Assembly (NCBI GenBank): GCA_003326215.1
Contig: LXQD01000205.1
Span: forward strand, 1 to 32,000
DNA length: 32,000 nucleotides
DNA from: Nostoc minutum NIES-26
GTDB taxonomy: Bacteria > Cyanobacteriota > Cyanobacteriia > Cyanobacteriales > Nostocaceae
Direction of reading: 5' to 3'
The notes under the pieces are model-generated. The model made no database searches and had not been told where the DNA came from. It saw nothing but the letters and a program-made list of their open reading frames with translations. Below are positions 4,460 to 25,970 of this stretch, one piece after another. The translations under genes were made by a program, and so were the position numbers. Position 1 is the first letter of the stretch. Each line of letters starts with the position of its first letter.

Positions 4460-6805
4460 TTGCCCCTGAGTGGGGTGGTGGAATTTGTCGGACGTGAAGA
4501 GGAATTGCAAAACCTCCACCAACTTTTGCAGGATAATAAACAAGTAGCAATAGCAGCGATCGCTGGCATGGGTGGAGTCGGGAAAACAGAACTCGCCCTG
4601 CAATATGCCATCAACAAGCGCGAAACATATAACGGTGGGCTTTGCTGGTTGCTACCAAAAACCGGGGATGTGGGCATTCAAGTTGTGCAGTTTGCCAGAA
4701 CGCAGCTTGATTTAAATCCACCAGAAGATTTTGATTTATTGGCGCAAGTGCAATATTGCTGGCGGCGTTGGCGTGAAGGTGATGTGCTGCTAGTGTTGGA
4801 TGATGTTGGCGACTACCAAGAAGTTAAGCCTTACTTCCAGTCCCTACCTTCTCGGTTTAAAGTGTTGATGACTACGCGCCAGAACTGGGGACGCATTGCA
4901 AAGTTATCTTTGGATGTGCTGCTACCAGAGGCGGCGCTGGAGTTGTTGAGGTCTTTACTCAAAGAAACACCAGAGCGAATTGAGCGAGAATTAGCTGTAG
5001 CAAATCAGTTGTGTGAGTGGCTGGGATATTTACCTTTGGGTGTGGAATTAGTGGGGCGCTATCTGGCGCGAAAACAGGATTTATCTCTAACAGAAATGTT
5101 GCGGCGGTTGGAGAACAAGCGACTAGATGAGCGTTCCCTCTTTAAATCTAAGTCGGAAGCCGACATGACAGCACAACGAGGGGTGTTAGCAGCCTTTGAG
5201 TTGAGTTGGCAAGAATTAGAAGACGACGATAAACAATTGGGCTGTTTATTGAGTTTATTTGCCGCCGCACCCATACCTTGGAAGTTGGTAGAACAGTGTT
5301 TACCAGAAGAAGATGCGGAAGATTTAGAAGAAATTAGAGATGATAAGTTGCTGAATTTGCATTTACTTCAGCGCAAAGGTGAGGGAATTTACCAACTGCA
5401 TTCACTGCTAAGGGAGTTTTTCCAATATAAGTGTACAGGTTTAGAACAGGCAGAGGAATTAAAGCGATCGCTTTGCAACGAAATCGTAGTAGTTGCCAAG
5501 GAGATTTCGCCAATGCCCACCCTTGAGCAAATTACTGCCGTCTCCCCCGCTGTACCTCATATAGCTGAAGTTGCGAAGAATCTCATTGAATACATTAGCG
5601 ACGATGATTTACTTTGGCCTTTCGTCGGTAACAGTCGATTTTATTATGGTCAGGGGTTATATGACCAGGCTTTACCTTGGTTTGAGCAGTGTTTAGAAGT
5701 CATTAAAAAGCGTTTGGGAGAGGAGCATCCAGATGTTGCCACTAGCCTCAACAACCTAGCGGAACTCTACCATTCCCAAAGCAGATACAGCAAAGCCGAA
5801 TCCCTATTACAGCAAGCTTTAGCACTCAGGCGTAGGCTACAGGGACAGGAGCATCCAGATGTTGCTACTAGCCTCAACAACCTAGCGTTACTCTACCATT
5901 CCCAAGGCAGATACAGCGAAGCTGAACCCTTATTACAGCAAGCTTTAGTACTCAGACGCAGGCTGCTGGGAGAGGAGCATCCAGATGTTGCACAGAGCTT
6001 CAACAACCTAGCGTTACTCTACCATTCCCAAGGCAGATACAGCAAAGCCGAACCCCTGTATCAGCAAGCTTTAGCACTCAAGGGCAGGCTGCTGGGAGAG
6101 GAGCATCCAGATGTTGTACTTAGCCTTAGCAACCTAGCGTTACTTTACTACTCCCAAGGCAAATACGGCGAAGCTGAACCCCTATTACAGCAGACTTTAG
6201 CACTTAGGCGTAGGCTGCTGGGAGAAGAGCATCCAGATGTTGCACAGAGCCTCAACAACGTAGCAGGACTCTACGACTCCCAAAACAGATACAACGAAGC
6301 CGAACCACTGTATCAGCAGGCTTTAGCACTTGGGCGTAGGCTGCTAGGAGAGGAGCATCCAGATGTTGCGACTAGCCTCAACAATCTAGCGTCACTCTAC
6401 TACTCCCAAAGCAGATACAGCGAAGCCGAACCCCTCTACCAGCAAGCTTTAACACTCAGGCGCAGGCTGCTGGGAGAGGAGCATCCAGATGTTGCACTTA
6501 GCCTTAACAACCTAGCGTTACTTTACTACTCCCAAGGCAGATACAGCAAAGCCGAACCCCTCTACCAGCAAGCTTTAACACTCAGGCGCAGGCTGCTGGG
6601 AGAGGAGCATCCAGATGTTGCACTTAGCCTTAACAACCTAGCGTTACTTTACTACTCCCAAGGCAGATACAGCAAAGCCGAACCGTTGTACATGCAAGCA
6701 TTAGATATTTTTGAGCGATGGTTAGGCACAAATCATCCTAATACTGTGACTGTGCGTGAAAATTTAGCATATTTGCGCGATCGCCTCACCTCAAATCCAG
6801 AATAA
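4460..6805 (+). CDS. STAND NTPase: NB-ARC-type P-loop domain plus about 8.5 TPR (kinesin-light-chain-like) repeats
   Basis: Walker A GMGGVGKT (4565-4588), Walker B LLVLDDV, and eight 42-aa repeats of the form LGEEHPDVAxSLNNLALLYxSQGRYSxAEPLYQQALxLRRRL. The ORF-track start is a TTG. The frame is open upstream back to the TGA at 4397-4399. Confidence 0.9.
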   Translation: MPLSGVVEFVGREEELQNLHQLLQDNKQVAIAAIAGMGGVGKTELALQYAINKRETYNGGLCWLLPKTGDVGIQVVQFARTQLDLNPPEDFDLLAQVQYCWRRWREGDVLLVLDDVGDYQEVKPYFQSLPSRFKVLMTTRQNWGRIAKLSLDVLLPEAALELLRSLLKETPERIERELAVANQLCEWLGYLPLGVELVGRYLARKQDLSLTEMLRRLENKRLDERSLFKSKSEADMTAQRGVLAAFELSWQELEDDDKQLGCLLSLFAAAPIPWKLVEQCLPEEDAEDLEEIRDDKLLNLHLLQRKGEGIYQLHSLLREFFQYKCTGLEQAEELKRSLCNEIVVVAKEISPMPTLEQITAVSPAVPHIAEVAKNLIEYISDDDLLWPFVGNSRFYYGQGLYDQALPWFEQCLEVIKKRLGEEHPDVATSLNNLAELYHSQSRYSKAESLLQQALALRRRLQGQEHPDVATSLNNLALLYHSQGRYSEAEPLLQQALVLRRRLLGEEHPDVAQSFNNLALLYHSQGRYSKAEPLYQQALALKGRLLGEEHPDVVLSLSNLALLYYSQGKYGEAEPLLQQTLALRRRLLGEEHPDVAQSLNNVAGLYDSQNRYNEAEPLYQQALALGRRLLGEEHPDVATSLNNLASLYYSQSRYSEAEPLYQQALTLRRRLLGEEHPDVALSLNNLALLYYSQGRYSKAEPLYQQALTLRRRLLGEEHPDVALSLNNLALLYYSQGRYSKAEPLYMQALDIFERWLGTNHPNTVTVRENLAYLRDRLTSNPE
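5711..6721 (+). repeat. eight tandem 126-nt coding repeats (TPR units), including a perfect duplication
   Basis: 6425-6558 is identical to 6551-6684 (period 126 nt), checked base by base. The other units are highly similar. Confidence 0.95.
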
Positions 6806-8147: not shown

Positions 8148-8202
8148 AAAATTGTCTCTCTAAAATCTCGTTTATCTTTGCTGTTGGGCTTCATCTCTCT
8201 GG

Positions 8203-8235
8203 GGTGGAATCATAGTGTCATAAAGGCAATCGCTC
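8203..8235. repeat. 33-nt conserved element, copy 3
   Basis: GGTGGAATCATAGTGTCATAAAGGCAATCGCTC. It lies 55 nt upstream (in minus-strand sense) of the DUF433 ATG at 8147. Confidence 0.75.
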
Positions 8236-8429
8236 CACTTAAAATGTAGATTCACGAGCGATCGCACATCAAATTTCAAGATTCCAAGAGGAACTTACTA
8301 CAAAAGTGGCAAGTTGCATCAAAATGAGGCTATGCGATCGCACTCAAAAACTAACTTCAATCAACAGCAAACGCTACCCTAGAACTCAGTAAACGCGATC
8401 GCGATCGCTCAAGCTTTGAAGTTTCAACT

Positions 8430-8999
8430 ATGATAGCCTCCTCCCAACAGAATTACCTTACCCCTGAAGAGTACCTCCAACTAGAGGAACAAAACTCTGT
8501 TAAACATGAATACATCGACGGCTACATCTACGCAATGGCTGGGGCGCTTGACCCACATGTTACCATTGCTCTTAACCTTGCTTCTCTCCTCCGCAATCAT
8601 GTACGCGGTACTGGGTGTCGCGTTTACATCGCCGACATGAAAGCACGAATTGAATCTCTAAATCGCTTTTACTATCCCGATGTTATGGTTACTTGCGATC
8701 CACGCGATCGAGAAACACCAGCCTATAAAAGATTTCCTTGTTTAATTGTCGAAGTTTTATCCGATTCTACCGAAGCCTTTGACCGGGGCGATAAATTCGC
8801 CGACTACCAAGCGCTGGAAAGCCTCCAAGAATATACTTTAATTAATACAAAACGTCAGCGAGTCGAGTGTTTTCGTCGCAATGATGAGGGGCTGTGGGTT
8901 TTACAATCTTACACATCAGAAAATCAAACATTTCGGCTTAACAGTGTGGATTTCCAGGAAACAATAGTATCACTTTACGAAGATGTAGTTTTTGAATGA
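8430..8999 (+). CDS. Uma2-family (DUF820) putative endonuclease
   Basis: 189 aa, with EYIDGYIYAMAG, YYPDVMV, LIVEVLSDST and GDKFADYQALESLQEYTLI, matching the PD-(D/E)xK-like Uma2 pattern common in cyanobacteria. Confidence 0.8.
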   Translation: MIASSQQNYLTPEEYLQLEEQNSVKHEYIDGYIYAMAGALDPHVTIALNLASLLRNHVRGTGCRVYIADMKARIESLNRFYYPDVMVTCDPRDRETPAYKRFPCLIVEVLSDSTEAFDRGDKFADYQALESLQEYTLINTKRQRVECFRRNDEGLWVLQSYTSENQTFRLNSVDFQETIVSLYEDVVFE

Positions 9000-9123: not shown

Positions 9124-11109
9124 ATGGCGCTCATAGTTCAAAAATACGGTGGTACATCTGTCGGTTCAGTCGAACGCATCCAAGCTGTTGCACAACGCGT
9201 TTATAAAACAGTTAAAACAGGAAACTCACTTGTTGTAGTGGTTTCCGCAATGGGCAAAACCACCGATGGACTCGTCAAACTAGCTAATGAAATTTCCACA
9301 AATCCTAACCGCCGGGAAATGGATATGCTGCTTTCTACTGGCGAGCAAGTTACCATTGCCTTACTCAGCATGGCATTGCAAGAACTCGGACAACCAGCAA
9401 TTTCGATGACTGGCGCTCAAGTAGGAATTGTTACCGAAGCAGAACACACCCGCGCTCGAATTTTGCACATTAAAACCGATCGCCTCGTCCGTCACCTCAA
9501 TCTCGGCAAAGTAGTTGTAGTAGCTGGGTTTCAAGGTATAGCTAGCACTGAAGAGTTAGAAATTACAACTTTGGGGCGCGGTGGTTCTGACACGTCAGCA
9601 GTGGCTTTAGCCGCAGCCTTAAAAGCAAATTTTTGTGAAATTTATACAGATGTGCCAGGGATTTTAACTACAGACCCCCGCTTGGTTCCCGAAGCCCAAC
9701 TGATGGATGCAATCACCTGCAATGAAATGCTAGAACTGGCAAGCTTGGGAGCAAAAGTACTGCATCCCCGTGCCGTAGAAATTGCTCGTAACTATGGTGT
9801 TCCCCTAGTAGTCAAGTCTAGCTGGACGGATGACCCCGGTACTTGGGTGACATCAGCCAAACCCCAAGGGCGATCGCTAATCAATTTAGAAATTGCCCGT
9901 CCGGTAGACCATGTAGAATTTGACACAGACCAAGCCAAAGTAGCTTTATTGCGCGTACCTGATAAACCAGGGGTAGCAGCCAAATTATTTGGTGAAATAG
10001 CCCGCCAAAACGTCGATGTAGACTTAATTATTCAGTCAATTCATGAAGGTAACAGTAATGACATTGCTTTTACCGTCACAACACCCATATTAAAACGGGC
10101 AGAAGCAGTAGCAGCAGCGATCGCCCCAGCACTGAGAAGTAAATCTAACCCAAAATTTGACGAAGCCGAGGTGATGATAGAGCAAAATATCGCCAAAGTT
10201 AGCATTGCTGGTGCAGGCATGATTGGCCGTCCTGGCGTAGCTGCCAAGATGTTCGCCACCTTAGCTGAAGCTGGCGTAAACATCCAAATGATTTCCACCA
10301 GCGAAGTCAAAGTAAGTTGCGTAGTAGATGCAGCAGAATGCGATCGCGCCGTTACCGCACTTCGCAACGCCTTTGAAGTGGAAGCAAGGGAGCAAGGGAG
10401 CAGGGGAGCAGGGGGAGTAGGGGAAGCAGGGGGAGCAGGGGGAGCAGGGGGAGCAGGGGGAGCAGGGAGAGAAATAACAACTAACTTCCTACTTAGCAAC
10501 GCCAGTCCGCTCAAGTCGGGAGACCCGCCCACGCGGCTGGCTCCTCAGCACTCAGCACTCTCTTGTACAGACGTGATTCATCGCGTCTCTACTCAGCACT
10601 GTCCATGGGTTCGCGGCGTTGCTCTAGATATGAATCAAGCCCGTCTTGCCATTCGCCAAGTGCCAGATCGGCCGGGGATGTCGGCGCAGTTGTTTGGACT
10701 ATTGGCACAGCACAACATCAGCGTTGATATGATTATCCAATCTCAACGTTGTCGGATAATTGATGGTGTTCCCAGGCGGGATATTGCCTTTACAGTCTCG
10801 CGGATGGATGGGGAAAATGCAAAAGAATTGCTTACCCAAGTAGCAGCAAAATTAGGATGGGGTGAGGTTGTTTTAGATGGTGCGATCGCCAAAGTCAGTA
10901 TTGTCGGTGCAGGCATGGTGGGACAACCAGGAGTTGCTGCCAAAATGTTTGAAGCCCTAGCTCAACACCAAATTAATATCCAAATGATTGCCACCTCAGA
11001 AATTAAAATTAGCTGTGTCGTGGCACAAGAGCAAGGTGTGAAAGCTTTACAAGGCATTCATGCTGCCTTTGGGCTTGCTGGCAGCGAGAAATTCGTAGTG
11101 CCAGCTTAA
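9124..11109 (+). CDS. lysC: aspartate kinase with duplicated ACT regulatory region (cyanobacterial type), carrying an in-frame repeat-derived insert
   Basis: Starts [15 protein letters not shown], with the [12 protein letters not shown] kinase core and two blocks of paired ACT domains ([11 protein letters not shown]...[14 protein letters not shown] and [11 protein letters not shown]...[14 protein letters not shown]). The blocks are separated by the repeat-encoded stretch [21 protein letters not shown]... Confidence 0.95.
10381..10600. repeat. composite repeat insert inside lysC: 9-nt tandem repeat, a small dispersed repeat, and an imperfect palindrome
   Basis: 9-mers of the GGGGGAGCA type span 10384-10468. 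GTCGGGAGACCCGCCCACGCGGCTGGCTCCTC (about 10515-10546) is homologous to GTCGGCAAAGCCGCCCAACGCAGTGGCTCCTC at about 31040-31072. The palindrome-like GTACAGACGTGATTCATCGCGTCTCTAC lies at about 10565-10592. Confidence 0.8.
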
Positions 11110-11191: not shown

Positions 11192-12526
11192 CTACACCCC
11201 TACACCCATTTTTAAGACAGCATCTTTCCAGTTTGCCAAGTCAGCCAAAGAGCGATCGCGATAACGTCCGTAACGCTCTTGTTTATTTTTGATTTTTGCA
11301 CCCAGTTCTGGCAAAATCCCAAAATTAGGCGGCATCGGCTGGAAATGTTTGGGTGAAGCGGAACTGATAAACTCAAACAGTGCCCCCATCATCGTTGTTG
11401 GTGGTGCAGTCAACGGTTCTTGCCCCAAAGCTAGCCTTGCTGCATTTCTGCCAGCCAGCAAGCCCCCCGCTGCGGCTGCGGTGTAGCCTTCAGTCCCAAT
11501 CAATTGCCCAGCTGCGAATAAAGTCGGACGTTGCTTAAATTGCAGGGTAGGATACATGAGCTGAGGAGCATTGATAAAAGTATTGCGGTGCATCACTCCC
11601 AATCGCACAAATTCTGCCGCCTCCAAACCTGGAATTAGCTGGAATACTCGCTTTTGTTCGCCCCAACGCAAGTTAGTTTGGAATCCGACCATATTCCAAA
11701 GTTGACCAGCTTTGTCTTCTTGTCGCAACTGCACCACAGCATAGGGACGTTCTCCAGTGCGACTGTCAGACAATCCCACTGGCTTGAGGGGGCCGTAACG
11801 CATTGTGTCTTCCCCCCGTTGTGCTTGTTCTTCAATTGGCAGACAAGCTTCAAAAAATTTCGCTGTTTCCCGGTCAAAATCCTTAAGTTCTGTTTGTTCG
11901 GCTTTACGGAGTTCTTCCCAGAACCGCAAGTACTGCTCTTTATTCATTGGGCAGTTGAGATAAGAAGCTTCGCCTTTGTCATATCGTGATGCCATAAAGG
12001 CAATATCGCGGTTAATCGATTCTCCCACGATAATCGGACTAGCCGCATCAAAAAAGCTGAGGTATTCCATCCCCGTCAAGCGTTGCAAATCTTCTGCCAA
12101 GTCAGGACTGGTTAAAGGCCCAGTTGCCAAAACTACAATTCCTTCAGGTAGAGCTGGTACTTCGCCTCGGCGGAATTCAATCAAAGGATGGCTAGATAAA
12201 GTTTCCGTCAAATCTTGACCAAATTGACCCCTATCTACGGCTAACGCGCCACCAGCAGGAACAGCGTGTTCATCAGCTTTCGAGATGATTATAGAACCAA
12301 GTTGGCGTAACTCTTCGTGCAATAATCCAGCAGCGCGATCGCTTGCCATTGCCCCAAAGGAATTACTACAAACTAATTCCGCCAGATGTTCTGTATGATG
12401 AGCAGGGCTGAAGCGTTTTGGGCGCATTTCATGGAGAATTGCAGGCACTCCAGCCTGGGCTATTTGCCACGCTGCTTCTGTCCCAGCTAGTCCACCTCCA
12501 ATCACTTGTATCGGTTGTTTATCCAT
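11192..12526 (-). CDS. trmFO: methylenetetrahydrofolate--tRNA-(uracil-5-)-methyltransferase TrmFO
   Basis: 444 aa. The N-terminal FAD-binding motif [16 protein letters not shown] is followed by LHEMRP...[15 protein letters not shown], typical of TrmFO/Gid. Confidence 0.93.
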
Positions 12527-12897
12527 AAATTAGTCAAATTGTTAATTGCTAGTCTATTTGATTGTGCTTGTCTTCAGCTGTTTGGTAGATAAAAAAGCGT
12601 TTTACGAGCTTACCATCATCACGTTTGAGATAGTACCAAGATAACGAAACTGAAAAATCTTAACCGACAAATTAAACTTATTATCCACAAGAGTGCAAAT
12701 GTCTCAAACTCAGACCGAAAACTTTTGTGAAAGCGCTGTGCTTGCTGACTTCACAGTCTGCCCCATAGCAGTAAAGAATTCCATGCCCTGGTTGATAGGC
12801 GGCAGCCAGTGTTTTACACATTGATTGCGAGGTCGTGGTAGACAAAAATCAGCGACGTATTCGTGACTCGCTCAAGAAACACATTTTCATGCACCGT

Positions 12898-13742
12898 CAA
12901 TTTTTAGAGACAAAATTGCTGGCATTATGTTTGAAATGTTGAATAACAAAAAACACCGTAAATGCACGCATATTATAGTCAGAACTGAAATTTTCAGAAT
13001 AAGTCGCAGATGAAGACAGCATCTTGTTTACCGTTAGGCATAGACCAAAAGCTATATACAGTAGTAGGTATTGAGTTGTGATAAAGTTATGCATAGCTTT
13101 CAGATATTGACTTTGCGTGTTTAGTCTCAGACTTTTAGATTCAGGACAATTCTACCAAATGGAATAGTCCATTATTGATATTTCGCTATTGGGATTTATG
13201 CTAGCTATTTTTTTAATTTAAATGGTTATGTAATTCACCAAAAAAAATATTTGTCTCTAGTTAAAATGTGGGACAGACATAATTGTAATTATTAGGTCTT
13301 TTCCAGATAGTTTATCTAGTTGATTATTGAAAATGTTTGAAGCACAATAGCATCAAGTAGTTAAGTTAAAGAGCTTAATTACCTACAAAAACAACTTGTC
13401 GAGAGTCAACTATTCTAGGAGTAAATTATGTCAACTATCGCTGTTTCCGAACTAAACAACGCTGGCATTCAATTGTTTGAAGATTCCGAAAACTTTCTCA
13501 ATGACCTAAGCGATATAGATTCCATCTCTGTATATGGTGGTGGTGGTAATGGTGGTAATGGTGGTGTTAGTGATGTTACAACCTTGACAAAGCTGGCTGA
13601 AGGATTTGTGACTGTATATGCTGTTGGTCACATTGCTGATATAGCTAAATCATTCAGCGCAATTCAGTAATGAAAACGATAGTTCATTACTAATCTCTAA
13701 AACGCTTATCGGAGGCAAGGGAAAAACAATCTCTGCTATCAG
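12898..13742. repeat. left arm of a large inverted duplication
   Basis: It is the reverse complement of 14311-15147. The 5' region and leader-coding part are near-identical; the distal end (12898-13100) is more diverged. Confidence 0.9.
13428..13670 (+). CDS. double-glycine-leader peptide precursor (bacteriocin / microcin / pheromone-like), copy A
   Basis: 80 aa, with GGAG 8 nt upstream of the ATG. The leader ends LSDIDSISVYGG (fits LSxxELxxIxGG). The core is Gly-rich then amphipathic and contains no Cys. Confidence 0.7.
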   Translation: MSTIAVSELNNAGIQLFEDSENFLNDLSDIDSISVYGGGGNGGNGGVSDVTTLTKLAEGFVTVYAVGHIADIAKSFSAIQ

Positions 13743-13848
13743 CATGAAGGTTCGCGGATTACTGAGCCTCCGAAAGTGTCTACCAAAACTAGCTATTTAT
13801 ATAGCTTAGCTATAGTAAAAGATTTGCCATGCTCTCCTGAAAAATAAC

Positions 13849-13880
13849 AACCTAGCCAATTAGATTGGCTAGGTTTTTTC
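13849..13880 (+). terminator. intrinsic terminator downstream of peptide gene A
   Basis: AACCTAGCCAAT-taga-TTGGCTAGGTT followed by a T-run (TTTTTC). Confidence 0.7.
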
Positions 13881-14236
13881 TATTAAAAAAACTTCAAAAA
13901 ACTTTTATTTATCCATGTATAGGATGTATTTAAAGCTCAACAAGTTTAACATTTTAGTTTAGATAAACACTTTCATAAATGAGATTGTTGCAGATAAAAT
14001 TAACCACTACATAAGTTGTGCAATCTTTGCAAAACAATGGTTTAAAAATAAAAAAACAACAGATAATTAAAAGTCTTTATGTATTACTCTACTGCTATAC
14101 CAATATAAACTTTAGTGATGTAGCATAAGATTTTATAACATAGCTACAAGGATTCGAAGCTACTAAAAACTATAGAGTTTTAAATTGTACTGCTTGAAGT
14201 ATGTAAGACTAATTTAGGATTGCTAAATAACTTGTG

Positions 14237-14273
14237 ACAAACAAAATCCCCAACTTCTCAAAGAAGTCAGGGA
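14237..14273 (-). terminator. probable intrinsic terminator downstream of peptide gene B
   Basis: Imperfect hairpin TCCCCAACTTCT / AGAAGTCAGGGA (10 of 12 pairs), followed on the minus strand by TTTTGTTTGT. Confidence 0.5.
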
Positions 14274-14310
14274 TCTGTGGGTTTCGATTCTCAGAAATCA
14301 AGTAAAATTG

Positions 14311-15147
14311 CTACAGCAGAGATTCTTTTTCATTACCTCCTATAAGCGTTATAAAGATTAATAATGAACTATCGTTTTCATTACTGAATTGCGCTGAATG
14401 ATTTAGCTATGTTAGCAATGTGACCAACGCCATATACAGCTACAAATGCTTGAGCTAGCTTCGTTAATGGTGTAGCATCACTAGCACCACCATTACCACT
14501 AGCACCACCATATACAGAGATAGAATCTATATCACTTAGGTCATTGAGAAAGTTTTCGGAATCTTCAAACAATTGAATGCCAGCGTTGTTTAGTTCGGAA
14601 ACAGCGATAGTTGACATAATTTACTCCTAGAATAGTTGACTCTCGACAAGTTGTTTTTGCAGGTAATTAAGCTCTTTAACTTAACTACTTGATGCTATTG
14701 TGCTTCAAACATTTTCAATAATCAACTAGATAAACTATCTGGAAAAGACCTAATAATTGCAATTATGTCTGTTCCACATTTTAGCTAGAGACAAATATTT
14801 TTTCTGGTGAATTACATAACCATTTAAATTAAAAAAATAACTAGCATAAATCTCAATTGTGAAATATTGATAAAGGACTATTCCATTCGGTAGAATTGTC
14901 CTGAAACTAAAAGTCTGAGACTAAACACGCAAAGCTAATATCTAAAGGCTATACATCAATTTGTTACTACTCAACACTTATTCCTCTATATAACTTTTGG
15001 AATATGTCAAACGGCAAGCAAGATGCTGTCTTTATCTACGACTTCTTATTCCAATTTCAGTTCTGACTATAATATGCGTGCATTTACGGTATTTTTTGAA
15101 TTCAATAATTCAAACTTAATGCCAGCAATTTTGTCTCCAAAATTAGT
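14311..15147. repeat. right arm of the large inverted duplication
   Basis: It is the reverse complement of 12898-13742. Confidence 0.9.
14381..14617 (-). CDS. double-glycine-leader peptide precursor, copy B
   Basis: 78 aa. The first 38 residues are identical to copy A, with only 2 synonymous nt differences. The core is diverged (ASGNGGASDATPLTKLAQAFVAVYGVGHIAN...). Confidence 0.7.
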   Translation of the reverse strand: MSTIAVSELNNAGIQLFEDSENFLNDLSDIDSISVYGGASGNGGASDATPLTKLAQAFVAVYGVGHIANIAKSFSAIQ

Positions 15148-15238
15148 GAGTTTTTCCAAATGTAATACTTTCGCAAATTAACCATGCAAATTTGATAGAA
15201 TAGCAAGTTAGTTGTTTTTATAGGTAATTAATGCTTTT

Positions 15239-15271
15239 GCCCTCTGCCCTAGACAGAGGGCTTTTTGTTTT
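15239..15271 (+). terminator. hairpin plus T-run (GCCCTCTG-ccctaga-CAGAGGGC TTTTTGTTTT)
   Basis: Read directly. It lies between the inverted duplication and the response-regulator gene. Confidence 0.6.
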
Positions 15272-15594
15272 GCAAAAGATTAGCGATCGCTAGAAGTCAA
15301 GATATTGTCCAAAAATCAGATTTGTCTTGGGCTGGTTCTGGGAGGCATTTGTTCGTGACTAGCGCTCTTGCGTCACTCTGAGAAAGAAATCAAAGACAAC
15401 TAACGCCTAGATGGCAGGCTGGATAGAGAAAGAAGAAATTTGTAGAGCATGTGCGAGATTCTTTTTAGCTTTATACATAAACCTAAAAAGTAAATTTTTT
15501 TCTCTGGGTAGAATTTCCAGGAACTTTCTACAGATACACTAGTCATGCGATAGGCAAGCTGGGGAAGATTTAAGCAGTAGAGGGTGTTTTTGCA

Positions 15595-18009
15595 ATGAGA
15601 ATCTTGCTGATTGAAGATGACGAGATATTAGCGAGTGTCTTGTTGCAGTCTCTTACCCAACAACACTATGTTGTTGATACCGCACATGACGGACAAACTG
15701 GTTGGGAATATGCCCAAGGCACGCAGCACGACCTGATATTACTAGATGTGGGACTGCCAAAGCTGGATGGAATTACATTATGTCAACGCTTACGTTCTGA
15801 TGGCTATTCTGCTCCTATTTTGTTGATGACAGCGAAAGATGCAACTAGCGATCGCATTCGTGGACTCGATGCTGGAGCAGATGATTATCTGATTAAACCT
15901 TTGGATTTGGGAGAACTCCAAGCAAGAGTCAGGGCGTTGCTGCGTCGGGGCGATACTCCCCGTACTCCAGTGCTAGAAGTTGGTGCATTACGGTTAGATC
16001 CAAGTAGCTGTCAGGTAACATACAATAATCAACTGCTAGATTTAACACCCAAAGAATACAGTTTGCTGGAACTTTTGCTGCGGAATCCCTCGCGGGTTTT
16101 CAGTCGGGGAAATATCATCGAGCATCTCTGGACTTTCGACGATCCACCCCAAGAAGAAAGCGTCAAATCGCACATTAAAGGCTTGCGACAAAAGATGAAA
16201 GCAGCCGGAGCAGCAGACTGGATTGAAAACGTATATGGTTTGGGATATCGTCTGAATCCATCTTCAGGAGGAAGAGAAGTAGGAGAGCAGGGGAGCAGGA
16301 AGAGAAGTTGCCATAGCGTAGCGTTAGCGAGTCATCGAGCGTCGGAGGGTTTCCCTCCAAGCAAACTTCGGGGAGCAGAGGAGCAAGGGAGAAACTTTAA
16401 TCCAAAATTGCAAATCCCAAATTCTGAAGTTGAACAACAGTTCAACCAAGCTATGAGTGGCTTGTGGAGTCAATATCAGGGGTTGATGACACAACGGATG
16501 GAGGTAGTACAACAAGCAGCAGCAGCCATTTCTAGCAAAACGCTGACTCAAGAGTTACGCCAATCCGCAGAACGGGAGGCGCACAAGCTAGCTGGTGTCT
16601 TGGGAATGTTTGAGCAAGAAACTGGTACTCAGATAGCGCGAGAAATCGAACAGATTTTAGGCAAAGATGGAGACTTGTTACCAGCCCAAAAACGTCGGGT
16701 GTTGTCGCTAATACAAGAGTTAGCTGAATTGCTCAACCTGATGGGACAAAAGGTAGTTAATCAACCTACTATCTCGATGGTGGAAGAAATCAGTGCCAGA
16801 TTGCTACTAATTGACCCCGATTTGCAACTTGGTTTTCAGCTACAAGAACTGGCGCAATCTGAAGGAATAGGCTGGCAGCAAATCACAACCCTAGAAAGTG
16901 CGAAAAACTACCTGCAAACGACATTACCAGATTTAGTGGTGCTGAGTGTAGATGAAGTGGGGCTGCGGGAAGCAAGTTTAGCAATGCTTTCAGACTTAGC
17001 AACTCGCACCCCTCCTGTACCCGTGCTTGTGCTGGCTGCTGCTGATGGGTTGGTAGATCGCGTGAGCGTTGCTAGGTCTGGGGCGCGGGGTTTTCTGGTC
17101 AAGCCTGTCACCGCGAATCAAGTTTGGGATGTTGGGTCTGCACTATTACAGCGCACCCATTCTCTAACAGTCAATTTACTAGTAGTAGATGACGATCCGC
17201 TGATTTTGGCAGCTTTACGCCCAATGTTAGAGCCTTGGGGTATGCGTGTTACAGGATTAGACGAGCCGGTACGTTTCTGGGATGTACTGCAATCTACCAC
17301 ACCCGATTTGTTGATTTTGGATGTGGAGATGCCGCAAATAAGTGGTATTGAACTTTGCCAAGCAGTTCGTACAGATCCCCAGTGGCAGGAATTGCCGATT
17401 GTATTTCTCACCGCGCACCGAGAGATGGAAACTGTGCAGCAGGTATTTGCAGCTGGAGGAGATGATTATGTGGTCAAACCTGTCGTTGTGGCAGAACTGG
17501 TGGCAAGGATAACCCATCGCTTAGAACGCAGTCGTCTGCTTCACTCTTTCTGCACTCAAGACCCTTTAACCCGACTAGCAAATCAATCTCAGTCTAGCCG
17601 CGACTTGCAGCACCTGATTGCTCAAGCAAACAAAAATCAACACCCTGTTTGCTTAATGGTATTGAGTGCAATCGAGTTGCACCAAATTAATATCCAGTAC
17701 GGTCATGAGGCCGGCAACCAAGTCTTGCAACGATGGAGTCGTCTGTTTCAATCGACATTTTGTAGTGGCGAATTACTCAGCTATTGGGGCAACGGGGAGT
17801 TTGTGGTGGGAGTGTCTGGATTGACAAAAACAGAAGTAAGCACTCAGCTCAGTGATATTTTGACTACCCTTCGCCAACAAATATTCACAGCATCCAATGG
17901 CGATCGCTTCCAGGCAACATGTAGTTTTGCGATAGTTGAGTATCCTAATGATGGATTAACAATACAATCTCTCTATAAAATTGCTAATTCTACCTTGAAG
18001 CATAATTAA
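15595..18009 (+). CDS. multidomain response regulator: REC - OmpR-type wHTH - HPt - REC-like - REC - degenerate GGDEF
   Basis: 804 aa. REC1 has D51 (15745-15747) and LIKP. The wHTH region reads LTPKEYSLLELLL...VYGLGYRL. The HPt motif is EAHKLAGVLGMF (His at 16582-16584). The second REC-like region carries VLSVD and LVKP, and the third REC carries VVDDD, LILDVEMP and VVKP. The C-terminal domain starts DPLTRLAN and has GNGEF (17788-17802) in place of GGDEF, and it lacks the usual DxD. Confidence 0.9.
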   Translation: MRILLIEDDEILASVLLQSLTQQHYVVDTAHDGQTGWEYAQGTQHDLILLDVGLPKLDGITLCQRLRSDGYSAPILLMTAKDATSDRIRGLDAGADDYLIKPLDLGELQARVRALLRRGDTPRTPVLEVGALRLDPSSCQVTYNNQLLDLTPKEYSLLELLLRNPSRVFSRGNIIEHLWTFDDPPQEESVKSHIKGLRQKMKAAGAADWIENVYGLGYRLNPSSGGREVGEQGSRKRSCHSVALASHRASEGFPPSKLRGAEEQGRNFNPKLQIPNSEVEQQFNQAMSGLWSQYQGLMTQRMEVVQQAAAAISSKTLTQELRQSAEREAHKLAGVLGMFEQETGTQIAREIEQILGKDGDLLPAQKRRVLSLIQELAELLNLMGQKVVNQPTISMVEEISARLLLIDPDLQLGFQLQELAQSEGIGWQQITTLESAKNYLQTTLPDLVVLSVDEVGLREASLAMLSDLATRTPPVPVLVLAAADGLVDRVSVARSGARGFLVKPVTANQVWDVGSALLQRTHSLTVNLLVVDDDPLILAALRPMLEPWGMRVTGLDEPVRFWDVLQSTTPDLLILDVEMPQISGIELCQAVRTDPQWQELPIVFLTAHREMETVQQVFAAGGDDYVVKPVVVAELVARITHRLERSRLLHSFCTQDPLTRLANQSQSSRDLQHLIAQANKNQHPVCLMVLSAIELHQINIQYGHEAGNQVLQRWSRLFQSTFCSGELLSYWGNGEFVVGVSGLTKTEVSTQLSDILTTLRQQIFTASNGDRFQATCSFAIVEYPNDGLTIQSLYKIANSTLKHN
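16265..16395. repeat. in-frame repeat-derived insert in the regulator linker
   Basis: GGAGAGCAGGGGAGCAGG and GGGGAGCAGAGGAGCAAGGGAG flank GCCATAGCGTAGCGTTAGCGAG...CGGAGGGTTTCCCTCC. The inner piece resembles GCGTAGCGTCGACC...CGGAGGGAGACC at 30955-31000. Confidence 0.7.
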
Positions 18010-20949: not shown

Positions 20950-21564
20950 ATGTTTCAGCCTTTAGTAGAACCGATAATCTTTGAAGAATTTCTGGAATGG
21001 AAACCAGAAAATGGCAGATATGAATTACATAAAGGAGCCATATTTGAAATGCAGCCAACAGGAGACCATGAGCTAGTTAGAGCATTTTTGATTAGAGAAC
21101 TCAATTTTGAGATTCGTAAGTTTAATTTAGCTTATACAATTCCTGGTCAAGCATTAGTCAAATCAGTTGATAAGAAATCTGGTTATATTCCAGATGTATT
21201 AGTATTGAATGTCCCTAACTTGGTTAATGAGCCATTTTGGAAAAAGTCATCTACGGTTACTCAAGCAGAATCAATTCCATTGGCAGTAGAAGTTGTCAGT
21301 ACAAATTGGCGAGATGATTATTTCCTAAAATTTGGTGAATACGAGGAAATTGGAATTCCAGAATATTGGATTGTTGACTATGCTGCTCTTGGCGGAAAGC
21401 GGTTTATTGGAAATCATAAACAGCCAACAATATCAGTTTATGTTTTAGTTGACGGTGAATACCAAGTTACTCAATTCCGGGGTAATGATAAAATTCAATC
21501 GCCAACTTTCCCAGAGTTAAATTTAATCGCTGAACAAGTGTTTCAGTCTGCTTTGATTGAATAG
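20950..21564 (+). CDS. Uma2-family (DUF820) putative endonuclease
   Basis: 204 aa, with YELHKGAIFEM, YIPDVLVL, PLAVEVVSTNW, and KFGEYEEIGIPEYWIVD. Confidence 0.8.
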   Translation: MFQPLVEPIIFEEFLEWKPENGRYELHKGAIFEMQPTGDHELVRAFLIRELNFEIRKFNLAYTIPGQALVKSVDKKSGYIPDVLVLNVPNLVNEPFWKKSSTVTQAESIPLAVEVVSTNWRDDYFLKFGEYEEIGIPEYWIVDYAALGGKRFIGNHKQPTISVYVLVDGEYQVTQFRGNDKIQSPTFPELNLIAEQVFQSALIE

Positions 21565-23212: not shown

Positions 23213-23821
23213 ATGGTACAAGTGCTCGCTCCTAACGAAACGTTCTTGCAAAATGCAATTGTTGAAAGAATTAACTTTTCTAAGTTAAACAAAACTCGTA
23301 TTCGCTTTAGTATTAGGTTGAAAAACAGTACAATTAGTGCAGCACCTAAATGGGCAGATGTGCTAAAAACTTCTGACACTGACACCGAATCCGACTTAAT
23401 CAAGGTGACGAATTCTGAAGTCGGTCTGCGCGGCATCAAGGTATTCAAAGCCCTGAATGAAGCAGCCTCCCAACTCAGGCAAGAAATTGCATCAGTGCAG
23501 GAGTGGATGAGTTCTGACAACGGAGATTGGATCTGTCCGATAGACCTTGCACCTTTGGTTTGGAGTCAGTTGCTCAACATCCGAGACGCGATCGCTCCCA
23601 ATCTCCGCGCTGGACTACTAGACGAGTACGAGAAAGGCTTAGAAGATTACAAGCAACGAATAGAAAACTTCATCTCTATCCAGGCTTGGGAACTGTCACA
23701 CCTTCAGCAAGAAGAAGTCAAAGCTAATCTGCTAAGAGCTTTTCCAAATTTAAGCGAGTTAGAAGATTGTTTGCAGGTAATCATCGGTCGCCCCGTTATG
23801 ATCCCAGCATTGGTGCATTAG
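23213..23821 (+). CDS. hypothetical protein, last gene of the operon; its 3' end overlaps the convergent methyltransferase gene
   Basis: 202-aa ORF with natural-looking composition (…LLDEYEKGLEDYKQRIENFISIQAWELSHLQQEEVKANLLRAF…). It overlaps 23796..25970 by 26 nt. Confidence 0.5.
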   Translation: MVQVLAPNETFLQNAIVERINFSKLNKTRIRFSIRLKNSTISAAPKWADVLKTSDTDTESDLIKVTNSEVGLRGIKVFKALNEAASQLRQEIASVQEWMSSDNGDWICPIDLAPLVWSQLLNIRDAIAPNLRAGLLDEYEKGLEDYKQRIENFISIQAWELSHLQQEEVKANLLRAFPNLSELEDCLQVIIGRPVMIPALVH

Positions 23822-25970
23822 TATAATTTGTAGTGGCATGGCAAGGTGAGCGAGAAATGCGATCGCTTGCCTTGCCACTAACGGATATTATGGGAATACG
23901 GGACATTTCACGCTCTTGAGCATACTGCTTTTTTAGGGTTTCAATAGAAGCAAGGTAAGTACGGATGCTTTTTTCCCATTCCTCAGTACCGTAGGTTCGT
24001 AATAGTTCGAGCGCACTTGCTTCAATTTGATACACAGTTTTTGGACTGTTGATAGGGCGGCTCAGATCGTCTGGATTAGCAACTATCAAAGCGGCATCCA
24101 GAAATTGATGTACTGTCTGGCGGCGTACTGTTTCTCGTGTATTGGGCTTATAGGTTTTGCCATAATGCTGAGCCATGAATTCCATCATCGGCGTGATTCC
24201 CATAAAAGGGGAAGTTGCTAATTGCCAAGAGTCTGTCGGCTTTAAGTCAAGTAACGCCAGAAGGGTTAAAGCTGACCGTTCGTTAAGCTGTCTTCGTGGA
24301 AAGCCCAATTGTGACAAAATTTGCACCGCTTCATCAATTCGAGACTTAATTGCGATGGGATTGTTGCCTGACTGATTCGACATACTCAGTAACTTATTTT
24401 CCACAAGTTCATCGATTGCGCGCAAAGAGAGAAACTGTTCTTTGATTTCCGTCCCTAAAGACAATAGTTGTTCCAAAGTAGGATACTTTAATTTCCGCAA
24501 ATCTGTTGCATTTACCTGAGTATGTCCATTGAACAACCGAAAGAATGAATCAACCAAGGTTGAATTAAGATAAACTGCAAGCCCACAAGCCAAGGTATAG
24601 CTAAGTCCACGCCCCTGTTTGTGAAAGTAATTCAAGTGATTTTCAAAGCCGACATAAGCATAATCGAATCGATCGGCATTATAAATGACCGCAACAACCC
24701 GTCTTTTCTCTTCTTTTGACGAAAATCTTTTGCAGAGGACATAATGCTCATTTGGTACCAGAAGATTCTTTGTTTCTGCTCTATGCACTATAGCTTGGGG
24801 CTTTTTGGTTATTTTGGGATGCTCTATATATCCATCTGAGAAATTTACCGGATAAATCAAAGGAACAGTATTTTTTTCGGAATTTGTTCTGAGGTAATTT
24901 TTAGCTCGAAAATCTACAACCTTTCCAGTTGAAACTGTTAGCCCTAAATCTTGCAAAGTGCAAGTGAAAAGTGCCATTTGCTGAACAATTTGCTGGCTAA
25001 TTTTATCTGGAAGAATATGAATGAACTGCTCTTTATCGTCAGGGTGAACTAAATTCGCATATGGTACAGAGTGTGACATGATATAGTCATCATTAGCACC
25101 AAAGCTAGTATTAATGATTACGCTGCTAAACTTTTGCTCTTGTTTTGTAGCTCGGACGATCGCAGTTTCTTGTAGAACATCATCATTAAATGCTTCTTGC
25201 CGCGACTCAAAAAGATGTACTTGTTGTAAAGCCATCATCTCCAAAAACATCTTCCGAAAGTCACAAAAATACGGGCCATTGCAAAAACTACGCGGGGTAA
25301 TCGCTACAAACTCCCCTTTTGGTTTTAGCAGTTTTGCTGTGGCAGCCATAAAACCAGTATAAAGATTGCTAGTTTCCAAACCTATAGAACGTAGCAATTT
25401 CCGAACTTGGGAATGAGCATTGATTTTTAAATAAGGTGGATTGAGGATTGCATGGGTAAATTCTGCTGGATTTGTATTATTTAATAAACCAAGCTGAAGT
25501 CGCTTAACAGCATCTTCAATAAAATCAGTCTCACGAATTTCGTAATTGAAAGAAATACTTACATGTTGGCATTCTCTGGCACATAGCTCTAAAGTCTGGC
25601 GCAAATACCCGATCAGAAAAGGGTCAATTTCATAGGCTACAATACGTAAACTTGACGTATGTTGCTGCTGGCATACTTTGGTCACAAAAGCGGCTAGTAA
25701 TGAACCGATTCCAGCTCCGGCATCAAGCAAAAATATTTCAGGCAAATCCAGCCTATCAAACATCCCAGCCATCAATTCCGCCACCGAAGCGGGGGTGAGA
25801 AACTGCCCCATTAATCCTTTTTTATTTTGTCTTAGTTTAAAACTTGCTACAGCCCGATGCAGATCCACTTCTGCAAGCAAGTTGCCCCTAGATAATTGTG
25901 CTAGGCTGCTAAAACCTAAAATACTTCTATCACTTGCTACGAAAGCTTTACTACTTGATGGAATGCTCAC
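23796..25970 (-). CDS. N6-adenine DNA methyltransferase (gamma-class, Eco57I/PstI-like) fused to a BsuBI/PstI-type restriction endonuclease N-terminal DNA-binding domain; the nuclease domain is missing
   Basis: 724 aa. The SAM motif LLDAGAGIGSL precedes the catalytic NPPY (AILNPPYLKI). Residues from about 540 to 690 (…LGFPRRQLNERSALTLLALLDL…GITPMMEFMAQHYGKTYKPNTRETVRRQTVHQF…) match my memory of the BsuBI/PstI RE N-domain. The ORF ends about 35 aa later in unrelated sequence. Confidence 0.8.
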   Translation of the reverse strand: MSIPSSSKAFVASDRSILGFSSLAQLSRGNLLAEVDLHRAVASFKLRQNKKGLMGQFLTPASVAELMAGMFDRLDLPEIFLLDAGAGIGSLLAAFVTKVCQQQHTSSLRIVAYEIDPFLIGYLRQTLELCARECQHVSISFNYEIRETDFIEDAVKRLQLGLLNNTNPAEFTHAILNPPYLKINAHSQVRKLLRSIGLETSNLYTGFMAATAKLLKPKGEFVAITPRSFCNGPYFCDFRKMFLEMMALQQVHLFESRQEAFNDDVLQETAIVRATKQEQKFSSVIINTSFGANDDYIMSHSVPYANLVHPDDKEQFIHILPDKISQQIVQQMALFTCTLQDLGLTVSTGKVVDFRAKNYLRTNSEKNTVPLIYPVNFSDGYIEHPKITKKPQAIVHRAETKNLLVPNEHYVLCKRFSSKEEKRRVVAVIYNADRFDYAYVGFENHLNYFHKQGRGLSYTLACGLAVYLNSTLVDSFFRLFNGHTQVNATDLRKLKYPTLEQLLSLGTEIKEQFLSLRAIDELVENKLLSMSNQSGNNPIAIKSRIDEAVQILSQLGFPRRQLNERSALTLLALLDLKPTDSWQLATSPFMGITPMMEFMAQHYGKTYKPNTRETVRRQTVHQFLDAALIVANPDDLSRPINSPKTVYQIEASALELLRTYGTEEWEKSIRTYLASIETLKKQYAQEREMSRIPIISVSGKASDRISRSPCHATTNYTNAPMLGS

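Follow-up and report, generated by a model that had tools for sequence, protein, structure and literature searches.

Introduction

In a survey of HopA1/phosphotransferase gene pairs with HopA1 as bait, Eyles et al. (2021, Chem Sci) described Family 1A, which comprises 570 precursor peptides in 183 biosynthetic gene clusters (BGCs) (PMC8153245). The family occurs only in cyanobacteria, its precursors carry a double-glycine (GG) leader and are encoded beside HopA1 and a phosphotransferase, and its products are unknown (PMC8153245). In class V lanthipeptides and thioamitides, an APH-like LanK and a HopA1-like LanY jointly dehydrate Ser/Thr (PMC9486802). The present work concerns two short genes for GG-leader peptides that lie as a convergent inverted pair in a 32-kb stretch of DNA from the cyanobacterium Nostoc minutum NIES-26 (GenBank assembly GCA_003326215.1, contig LXQD01000205.1, positions 1 to 32,000 of the forward strand), which is referred to as the window.

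The prochlorosins of marine picocyanobacteria provide a precedent for precursors that are separated from their enzyme: many ProcA precursors share a GG-type leader, and scattered copies far from ProcM are processed in trans. A first-pass annotation of the window, made from the sequence alone, had regarded the two peptides as an orphan bacteriocin or pheromone with a diversified core. Here, they are assigned to Family 1A as satellite precursors, i.e., precursors encoded apart from the main cluster of their family. They are probably modified in trans, and their near-identical leaders probably result from gene conversion. Literature searches with the leader sequence and with HopA1 plus Nostoc found no product characterisation, and the pair adds new members to a family that is already catalogued and chemically uncharacterised.

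Results

Two Predicted Family 1A Precursors Are Encoded in the Window

The open reading frames (ORFs) of genes L and R (Table 1) were present as annotated, with 80 aa on the + strand and 78 aa on the - strand and GGAG before each ATG. This ribosome-binding site is located at -10 to -7 from each ATG and is invariant in 10 copies from 6 sources. The gene L product is 100% identical to the hypothetical protein A6770_18690 of N. minutum NIES-26 and 87% identical to that of gene R; the latter copy is apparently unannotated in public records. In gene L, the leader (residues 1-38; GG at 13536-13541) is followed by a Gly/Asn linker (39-46) and a conserved core module (residues 47-77; 13566-13658). Gene R has its GG at 14504-14509 and its core module at 14393-14485. 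Codon comparison confirmed that the 38 leader codons of both genes specify the same protein, MSTIAVSELNNAGIQLFEDSENFLNDLSDIDSISVYGG, with 2 synonymous and 0 non-synonymous differences. The remaining differences were partly revised: the identical C-terminal stretch comprises 9 codons (IAKSFSAIQ) plus the stop instead of 11, and the 2-codon indel after the GG was found again, while the number of further replacements was about 10, not about 8, plus 7 synonymous changes. Gene R carries Q58 and N71, which are common to the right-type (R-type) copies of the window, of Dendronalium CENA369 and of metagenome contig L195, and left-type (L-type) copies keep E58. No Cys occurs in either core or in 36 aligned family cores. 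An AlphaFold model of low confidence (pLDDT, predicted local distance difference test, of 60) contains helices 4-36 and 50-77 with a disordered linker between them.

Of the double-glycine consensus LSxxELxxIxGG, which calls for hydrophobic residues at -4, -7, -12 and -15, L-15, L-12, S-11, D-8, V-4, G-2 and G-1 are present in the leader, but position -7 is Ser. Scans of both peptides with Pfam and NCBIfam returned no meaningful match, and the GG-leader models were silent even at E<=10. A match to Nif11-, NHLP-type or class II bacteriocin leader models was therefore not obtained; at E<=10, NCBIfam gave no Nif11 (TIGR03798) or NHLP (TIGR03793) match and only a spurious one to DfrA10. A single-sequence search retrieved only nine relatives, including A6770_18690. 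The profile built from these nine yielded 480 proteins, and all those listed stem from heterocystous cyanobacteria (Nostocales), often from adjacent genes. An exhaustive HMMER search gave 709 representative clusters, about 18 of which match over the full length; the others match profile positions 1 to about 43, i.e., the leader alone. Thus, the same leader, M[AS]xIxISEL.PAGSELFQDSESFLNEL...GG, heads hundreds of clusters with many unrelated cores, which supports the earlier designation as double-glycine-leader peptides.

In an alignment of 36 sequences, the full-length subfamily showed four parts: a GG leader of 36-38 aa with invariant G37 and G38; a linker of 8-25 aa, rich in Gly/Ala/Gln and hypervariable; a conserved 30-aa core module (VSDPxTLTKLAEAFVxVYAIGHVTxLAKSFS); and a short variable tail. 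Invariant in the module are S48, L53, K55, L56, V61, Y64, H68, A73, K74, S75 and S77. The variable core proposed in the first-pass annotation thus does not hold at the family level, where only the linker after the GG is hypervariable. In the satellite clade to which the window pair belongs (MSTIAVSEL...), the leader exceeds that of main-cluster peptides by two residues. In the dataset of Eyles et al., 193 peptides contain DSESFL and 44 contain LAKSFS (PMC8153245). Judged by these sequence comparisons, the window peptides are double-glycine-leader precursors of the cyanobacteria-only Family 1A of RiPPs (peptides that are synthesized ribosomally and then modified post-translationally), and the subfamily with the ...LTKLAEAFV...GH...AKSFS core appears restricted to heterocystous Nostocales.

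Family Clusters Encode a Kinase/Lyase Pair and a C39 Exporter

A genome scan yielded 67 loci, all from Nostocales. Genomic context was counted over 69 non-redundant loci; neighbouring ORFs were clustered, and recurrent ones were annotated with Pfam. In a hidden Markov model (HMM) search of the ORFs of the loci, the precursor genes mostly formed same-strand arrays of 2-10 genes or occurred as singletons. The canonical gene order is DUF4332, TetR, M16, M16, precursor array, APH-like kinase (PF01636), HopA1-like protein (PF17914), PPIC rotamase, HlyD and Peptidase_C39 ABC exporter. The APH-like kinase and the HopA1-like protein were found in 30/69 loci, the M16 peptidase pair in 26/69, TetR in 24/69, PPIC rotamase in 21/69, HlyD in 20/69 and a verified C39 exporter in 18/69. 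The last count covers the fetched flank only, since several further loci stop short of the expected exporter position. Wherever a verified C39 exporter occurs, the gene order is the same, with the exporter 6-8 kb downstream of the precursor array. The earlier assumption that the GG leader is of the type cleaved by C39 ABC exporters was thus strengthened, as such an exporter and HlyD are encoded a few kb downstream in the main loci of the family. The full-length exporters (L057 2957-6028; homologues in L033, L038, L058, L059 and L071) possess an N-terminal PF00027 domain (32 bits), which binds cyclic nucleoside monophosphates (cNMP) and hints at possible cNMP-gated export.

In the remaining 39/69 loci, including the window, none of the canonical-cluster genes was found within 10 kb. 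Stand-alone satellite precursors are therefore normal in this family. The claim that the window holds no exporter or modification gene was confirmed: ORF clustering and Pfam scans of the ORFs revealed no modification, protease or exporter gene of the family in the 32 kb, and no ORF >=120 aa clustered with any canonical-cluster gene family. Since none of the main-cluster genes is present in the window, its pair is a satellite.

N. minutum NIES-26 is listed in the Eyles dataset with two HopA1 baits (PMC8153245). For one of them, RCJ30949, the dataset gives six or more precursors that share the core type of the window pair (LTKLAEA(F/Y)V...KSYS), e.g., MANINLSELHAAGSELFQDTESFLNELSDVDSISGGNYGSNVSDISGLTKLAEAYVLTYGVGHIAVITKSYS..., and are encoded 2.1-4.1 kb away (PMC8153245). 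Two precursors of this cluster were confirmed as A6770_20690 and A6770_20700 on a different contig of 102 kb, and one of the two is 58% identical to a window peptide. The processing machinery of the window pair is thus likely encoded in the same genome, elsewhere.

Several loci showed further particularities. In Nodularia locus L001, two double-glycine-leader peptides with unrelated cores (8191-8451 and 12180-12464) flank the precursor array, and one cluster may serve several core types. Among the satellites, the single-copy gene of Nostoc sp. UHCC 0702 (L194, 10001-10285) is located beside nifT/nifZ and an HMGL-like (NifV-type) gene, those in L020 and L024 beside a CheB/CheR-PAS hybrid histidine kinase, and those in L007 and L011 run convergently to the gene of a fused double-M16 peptidase (about 923 aa).

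The Inverted Arms Bear Signs of Gene Conversion

The inverted arms of ~840 bp around a 568-bp AT-rich spacer (about 32-34% GC), as annotated, were confirmed by repeat search and pairwise alignment. In the alignment, the arms end near 12902 and 15147 on the outside and at 13742 and 14311 on the inside. The repeat search detected the same arms as I1 (12947-13566 / 14479-15098; 620 nt, 91%) and I2 (13541-13725 / 14326-14510; 185 nt, 86%), and I3 extended them to about 12874 / 15170. Differences between the arms are unevenly distributed well beyond chance: they amount to 89 in 839 sites, with only 14 in the best 400-nt window and a longest identical run of 125 nt, and each of the latter two values was reached in 0/5000 permutations (clustering of differences, p<0.0002).

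A unit of ~1 kb, consisting of 5' region, ORF and 3' untranslated region (UTR), occurs with 74-77% DNA identity in four other genomes, namely Nostoc sp. NIES-4103, Amazonocrinis CENA67, Nostoc sp. UHCC 0702 and Dendronalium CENA369. CENA369 possesses the same convergent inverted pair, and its arms agree with those of the window in outer boundary and inner breakpoint. They also show the same asymmetry, i.e., the left-type copy retains the ancestral 3' UTR and terminator and the right-type copy the outer 5' extension of the ancestor. An outer boundary corresponding to 12902 is common to CENA369 and all single-copy units. Metagenome contig L195 represents a third instance of the inverted pair, with an intact R-type ORF and the contig end inside the partner ORF. 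Since junctions and asymmetry are shared by CENA369 and L195, the duplication was a single old event, and by these sequence features it would predate the split of N. minutum and Dendronalium.

The leaders of the window copies are 98% identical with a synonymous divergence (dS) of 0.08, and those of CENA369 copies a and b are 100% identical (dS 0.00), as compared to 84-86% (dS 0.49-0.67) between the genomes. The inner 5' region behaved similarly, with 95% identity in the window, 93% in CENA369 and 75-78% between genomes. For the core, dS was 0.35 and the non-synonymous divergence (dN) 0.12 in the window, and 0.25 and 0.08 in CENA369; dN/dS (omega) was 0.33 in both and 0 in the leader. Synonymous differences pooled over both genomes amounted to 2/49 in the leader vs 12/48 in the core (Fisher p=0.004). 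Because leader dS is far lower within than between genomes, the near-identity of leader and inner 5' region can be attributed to gene conversion between the arms; this concerted evolution appears to have proceeded in parallel in two lineages. Core identity is likewise highest within a genome (85% and 88% vs 79-83% between genomes); hence, the core has also been partly homogenised. The conversion tracts would have been stopped either by the GGT-rich linker indels or by selection preserving two core types.

In the window pair, the core (15/99, 15%) has diverged to the same extent as the outer non-coding arm (36/239, 15%). Together with the omega of 0.33, this does not agree with a core diversified by selection, and the first-pass annotation itself had named such an equality as evidence to the contrary. 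The core appears to be under purifying selection and to retain older paralogue-specific differences.

Conserved Non-Coding Flanks Contain Candidate Promoters and Terminators

The features of the pair and its flanks are compiled in Table 1. The full conserved non-coding 5' region comprises ~650 nt, and the terminator at its end is directed away from the gene. No conserved reading frame was found in it on either strand; two small ORFs (MRAFT... and MSNGKQD...) were rejected, as they are frameshifted or startless in some copies. Rfam gave nothing above threshold on 12500-15600, and the sub-threshold matches to JA04 (26 bits vs a gathering threshold of 81) and NsiR1 (22 vs 39) both fell on terminator hairpins. 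NtcA (GTAN8TAC) and DIF (TCCGGA) motifs are not conserved in the copies of the unit.

Table 1. Coordinates of the inverted pair and associated features in the window.
Feature	Position	Strand	Remarks
Left arm	12902..13742	+	Truncated 5' region, gene L, first ~70 nt of 3' UTR (repeat search and alignment)
Conserved non-coding 5' region of gene L	12902..13417	+	72-78% identical to 5' regions in four other genomes
Nearly invariant 39-nt block AGCAnAATAGCATCAAGTAGTTAAGTTAAAGAGCTTAA	13340..13378	+	50-88 nt upstream of ATG; mirror 14667-14705 (-)
Ribosome-binding site GGAG of gene L	13418..13421	+	Mirror copy 14624-14627 (-)
Precursor gene L	13428..13670	+	80 aa, intact ORF
3' UTR hairpin of gene L	13710..13772	+	CGGAGGC...GCCTCCG
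Intrinsic terminator of gene L	13849..13875	+	12-bp stem and T run
AT-rich central spacer	13882..14222	.	No conserved ORF
Terminator-like hairpin downstream of gene R	14244..14276	-	Copy of dispersed hairpin repeat
Right arm	14311..15147	-	Homology to single-copy units of other genomes goes on outward to about 15273
Precursor gene R	14381..14617	-	78 aa, intact ORF
Candidate divergent non-coding transcript	14903..15270	+	~370 nt; complete only in right copy

Across 10 copies from 6 sources, the 39-nt block hardly varies. Within it lies a candidate -10 element (CACAAT, 13343-13348), spaced by 17 nt from a candidate -35 element (TTGATT, 13320-13325). A 9-bp hairpin, GTAGTTAAG/CTTAATTAC, may form at the start of the 5' UTR; it shows one-sided changes only. 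Metagenomes were scanned twice for the invariant 5' UTR motif; one scan gave no match, and the other gave 120 matches, none of which had wider similarity to the unit (blastn). Further upstream, conserved palindromes are found, namely AGTCTCAGACT and the decamer AGACATAATT, of which there are two inverted copies with about 120 nt between them.

The 3' UTR hairpin of gene L reads GGAGGT...ACCTCC in other genomes, a compensatory change, and the breakpoint of the duplication (13742) lies in its loop. The terminator of gene L is conserved in CENA369 copy a and in single-copy units. The central spacer showed no homology to those of CENA369 and L195, which are about 106-120 nt long; an immunity gene in the spacer was rejected, as the spacer is not conserved. 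The hairpin AAATCCCCAACTTCTCAAAGAAGTCAGGGATCT (14237-14283) at the inner end of the right arm is a short dispersed repeat with 78-90% identity in unrelated Nostocales loci (L001, L008, L009, L018, L021, L023, L026, L030, L038, L041, L049 and L062).

The full unit opens with a GC-rich hairpin that is an intrinsic terminator on the strand opposite the peptide gene (15239-15261 and T run, +). This outward-facing terminator is conserved in 7/8 units, its hairpin shows a compensatory change from C-G to T-A in CENA369 and L195, and homology between units of different genomes starts exactly there. Together with a promoter-like site at 14867-14896 (TTGATA-18-TAGAAT), it suggests a divergent non-coding RNA of ~370 nt that would be truncated at 12902 in the left copy. 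RNAalifold revealed little covariation apart from the terminator, both in the sense 5' region and in the antisense candidate RNA. Each full unit contains two direct copies of a 22-nt motif, TTAATTACCTAYAAAAACAACT, spaced by about 560 nt; one lies in the 5' UTR, and the other adjoins the outward-facing terminator (window: 15210-15231, 14649-14670 and 13375-13396; L007: 9383 and 9947; L011: 9379 and 9943). The two copies may represent paired operators or a scar left by some old insertion or duplication.

Other Genes of the Window

The pair is adjoined by a response regulator-Hpt-GGDEF gene (15595-18009). The link to this phosphorelay regulator that had been proposed was rejected, since the synteny is not conserved: the same inverted pair in CENA369 has different neighbours. 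The response regulator-Hpt-GGDEF protein and the aspartate kinase (9124-11109) carry in-frame low-complexity inserts (~16267-16450 and ~10396-10624, respectively). Both inserts share an EQGSR motif (e.g., GEQGSRKRSCHS...) and may be small mobile repeats in coding linkers. Defence- or signalling-type genes were found within 4460-6805, 8430-8999, 20950-21564, 23796-25970 and 26180-28699. They encode an NB-ARC/TPR protein, two Uma2-family endonuclease-like proteins, a protein that combines Eco57I/N6-methylase domains with a BsuBI/PstI restriction-endonuclease helix-turn-helix, and a fusion of a caspase-like (Peptidase_C14) protein with a periplasmic-binding domain.

Discussion

The window most probably contains a convergent inverted pair of Family 1A satellite precursors that are modified in trans, with leaders kept alike by gene conversion. 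A modified RiPP processed in trans appears more likely than an unmodified class II peptide because the family is tied to an APH-like plus HopA1-like pair and because N. minutum has such a cluster. Each gene would form a transcription unit by itself, which starts at a promoter in the conserved 5' region and stops at a terminator of its own. The 38-aa leader would recruit the kinase/lyase pair encoded elsewhere, which would dehydrate some of the conserved Ser/Thr residues (S48, T51-T54, S75 and S77). During export, the C39 domain of the exporter is predicted to cut off the leader after the GG, and the variable Gly-rich linker may be trimmed by the M16 peptidases. The expected product is a Cys-free, largely helical peptide of 30-42 residues.

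Several observations weigh against this interpretation. Processing in trans is deduced for a 32-kb window free of modification, protease and exporter genes, and the main cluster of N. minutum, with at least six paralogous precursors, is located elsewhere and is known from the published dataset and protein records. The leader of the satellite clade is two residues longer than that of main-cluster peptides, to which the window peptides are only 58% identical, and it is not matched by the Pfam and NCBIfam leader models. The cores are Cys-free, Family 1A has no characterised product, and both the dehydration of the window peptides and the expression of the two genes are predictions. Regarding the leader, part of the identity of the copies could stem from strong purifying selection on 5' UTR and leader. 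However, purifying selection alone is insufficient because it cannot account for the lost synonymous divergence.

The proposal closest to the first-pass annotation holds that the peptides are unmodified class II bacteriocins or ComC-like pheromones, exported by a generic C39 exporter, perhaps feeding the phosphorelay/GGDEF regulator, with a core diversified by selection. C39 exporters are indeed near-universal in cyanobacteria (PMC3140520), the leader fits L-12, S-11, D-8, V/I-4, G-2 and G-1 of LSxxELxxIxGG, modification genes are lacking near the window pair, and some satellites lie beside signalling proteins, such as the GGDEF gene here and the CheB/CheR hybrid kinase in L020 and L024. Nevertheless, this proposal is unlikely, as the arrays of the family are found directly upstream of the APH-like kinase and HopA1-like lyase in 30/69 loci and the same genome has a cluster of this type with paralogous precursors, which also speaks against an orphan bacteriocin or pheromone. 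Moreover, the core is conserved across genera, its omega is 0.33 and its divergence is not above that of non-coding DNA, the regulator is not kept as a neighbour in CENA369, and no conserved immunity-like ORF is present in the spacer. A decaying, non-functional remnant, with a similarity pattern that reflects recombination history only, is the least probable of the explanations considered. It would fit the distance of the pair from any biosynthetic gene, the loss of the outer ~130 nt of the 5' region in the left copy and of the ancestral 3' terminator in the right copy, and the apparent lack of annotation of the second copy. However, both ORFs are intact in the window and in CENA369 and the R-type ORF is intact in L195, omega amounts to 0.33 for the core and 0 for the leader, neither the ribosome-binding site nor the 39-nt upstream block varies over 10 copies from 6 sources, and the arrangement has lasted since before two genera diverged.

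It is also very unlikely, if slightly less so than a remnant, that the genes form an obligate two-component pair of an E-type and a Q/N-type core, in which selection against core conversion rather than a mechanical tract limit shaped the pattern. Q58 and N71 are common to the R-type copies of three sources, L-type copies keep E58, and the same identity pattern arose in two genomes. Yet core identity is still highest within a genome, so that the core was partly converted, the GGT-rich linker indels could simply block heteroduplex extension, and most family members occur as singletons or arrays of 2-10, not as pairs. A broader idea with a somewhat better, though still low, chance of being correct is that the MSTIAVSEL clade constitutes a self-contained ~1.3-kb module conserved in at least five Nostocales genomes, in which the AGACATAAT promoters of the precursor and of the divergent ~370-nt non-coding RNA are placed back to back and the RNA stops at the conserved outward-facing terminator. 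Through this RNA, or through the operator-like palindromes, stand-alone precursors could then be linked to the distant cluster or a developmental signal, and the inverted pair may preserve two functionally distinct cores as a two-component product.

Taken as satellite precursors of Family 1A, the apparently orphan "bacteriocin" pair is placed in a large uncharacterised cyanobacterial RiPP family for which the likely trans-acting enzymes can be named, and natural-product chemists gain concrete substrates. A stand-alone precursor clade with a long conserved non-coding 5' region is a new point. The pair is also a clear case of concerted evolution in an ancient inverted arrangement. A conserved leader and a divergent core in inverted or tandem paralogues can reflect gene conversion and purifying selection, and it is worth comparing synonymous and non-coding divergence before diversifying selection is invoked.

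Class II bacteriocins and ComC pheromones resemble the family in their GG leader with a hydrophobic/acidic pattern, and the main clusters of the family encode a C39 exporter and an HlyD-type adaptor. In contrast to class II bacteriocins, the family leader is longer (36-38 aa) and has no Pfam PF10439 or NCBIfam match, the family is linked to modification enzymes, and an immunity gene is not evident. With regard to class V lanthipeptides/lanthidins (cacaoidin, lexapeptide, pristinin) and thioamitides, the enzyme pair matches the main clusters of the family but not the window. Lanthionine, methyllanthionine or aminovinylcysteine (AviCys) rings are impossible in window-type cores because these lack Cys, and no LanX/LanD-type genes occur among the recurrent neighbours of the family. 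Class V lanthipeptides stem from actinobacteria, whereas the family is cyanobacterial and its clusters contain two M16 peptidases, a rotamase and a peptidase-containing ATP-binding transporter (PCAT).

Prochlorosins share with the family the many precursors with a common GG leader and the scattered copies away from the modifying enzyme. However, their leader is of the Nif11 type, while the window peptides match neither the Nif11 nor the NHLP model; their enzyme is LanM instead of the APH and HopA1 enzymes of Family 1A; and their cores are hypervariable and Cys-rich, whereas the subfamily core is conserved and Cys-free.

The closest relationship is to Family 1A itself, with the same leader (M..I..SEL..AGSELFQDSESFLNEL...GG), the confinement to cyanobacteria and several non-identical precursors per locus (two in the window). 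The exact core type, including that of the N. minutum NIES-26 paralogues, is contained in the Eyles dataset. The window pair differs in that it is not beside HopA1/phosphotransferase genes, and the HopA1-bait survey could not catch it; the Family 1A paper holds no description of an inverted arrangement or a long conserved 5' region. Family 1A as published has highly variable cores without conserved Ser/Thr, whereas the Nostocales subfamily is newly recognised here by a strongly conserved, Cys-free 30-aa core with invariant Ser, Lys, His and Tyr.

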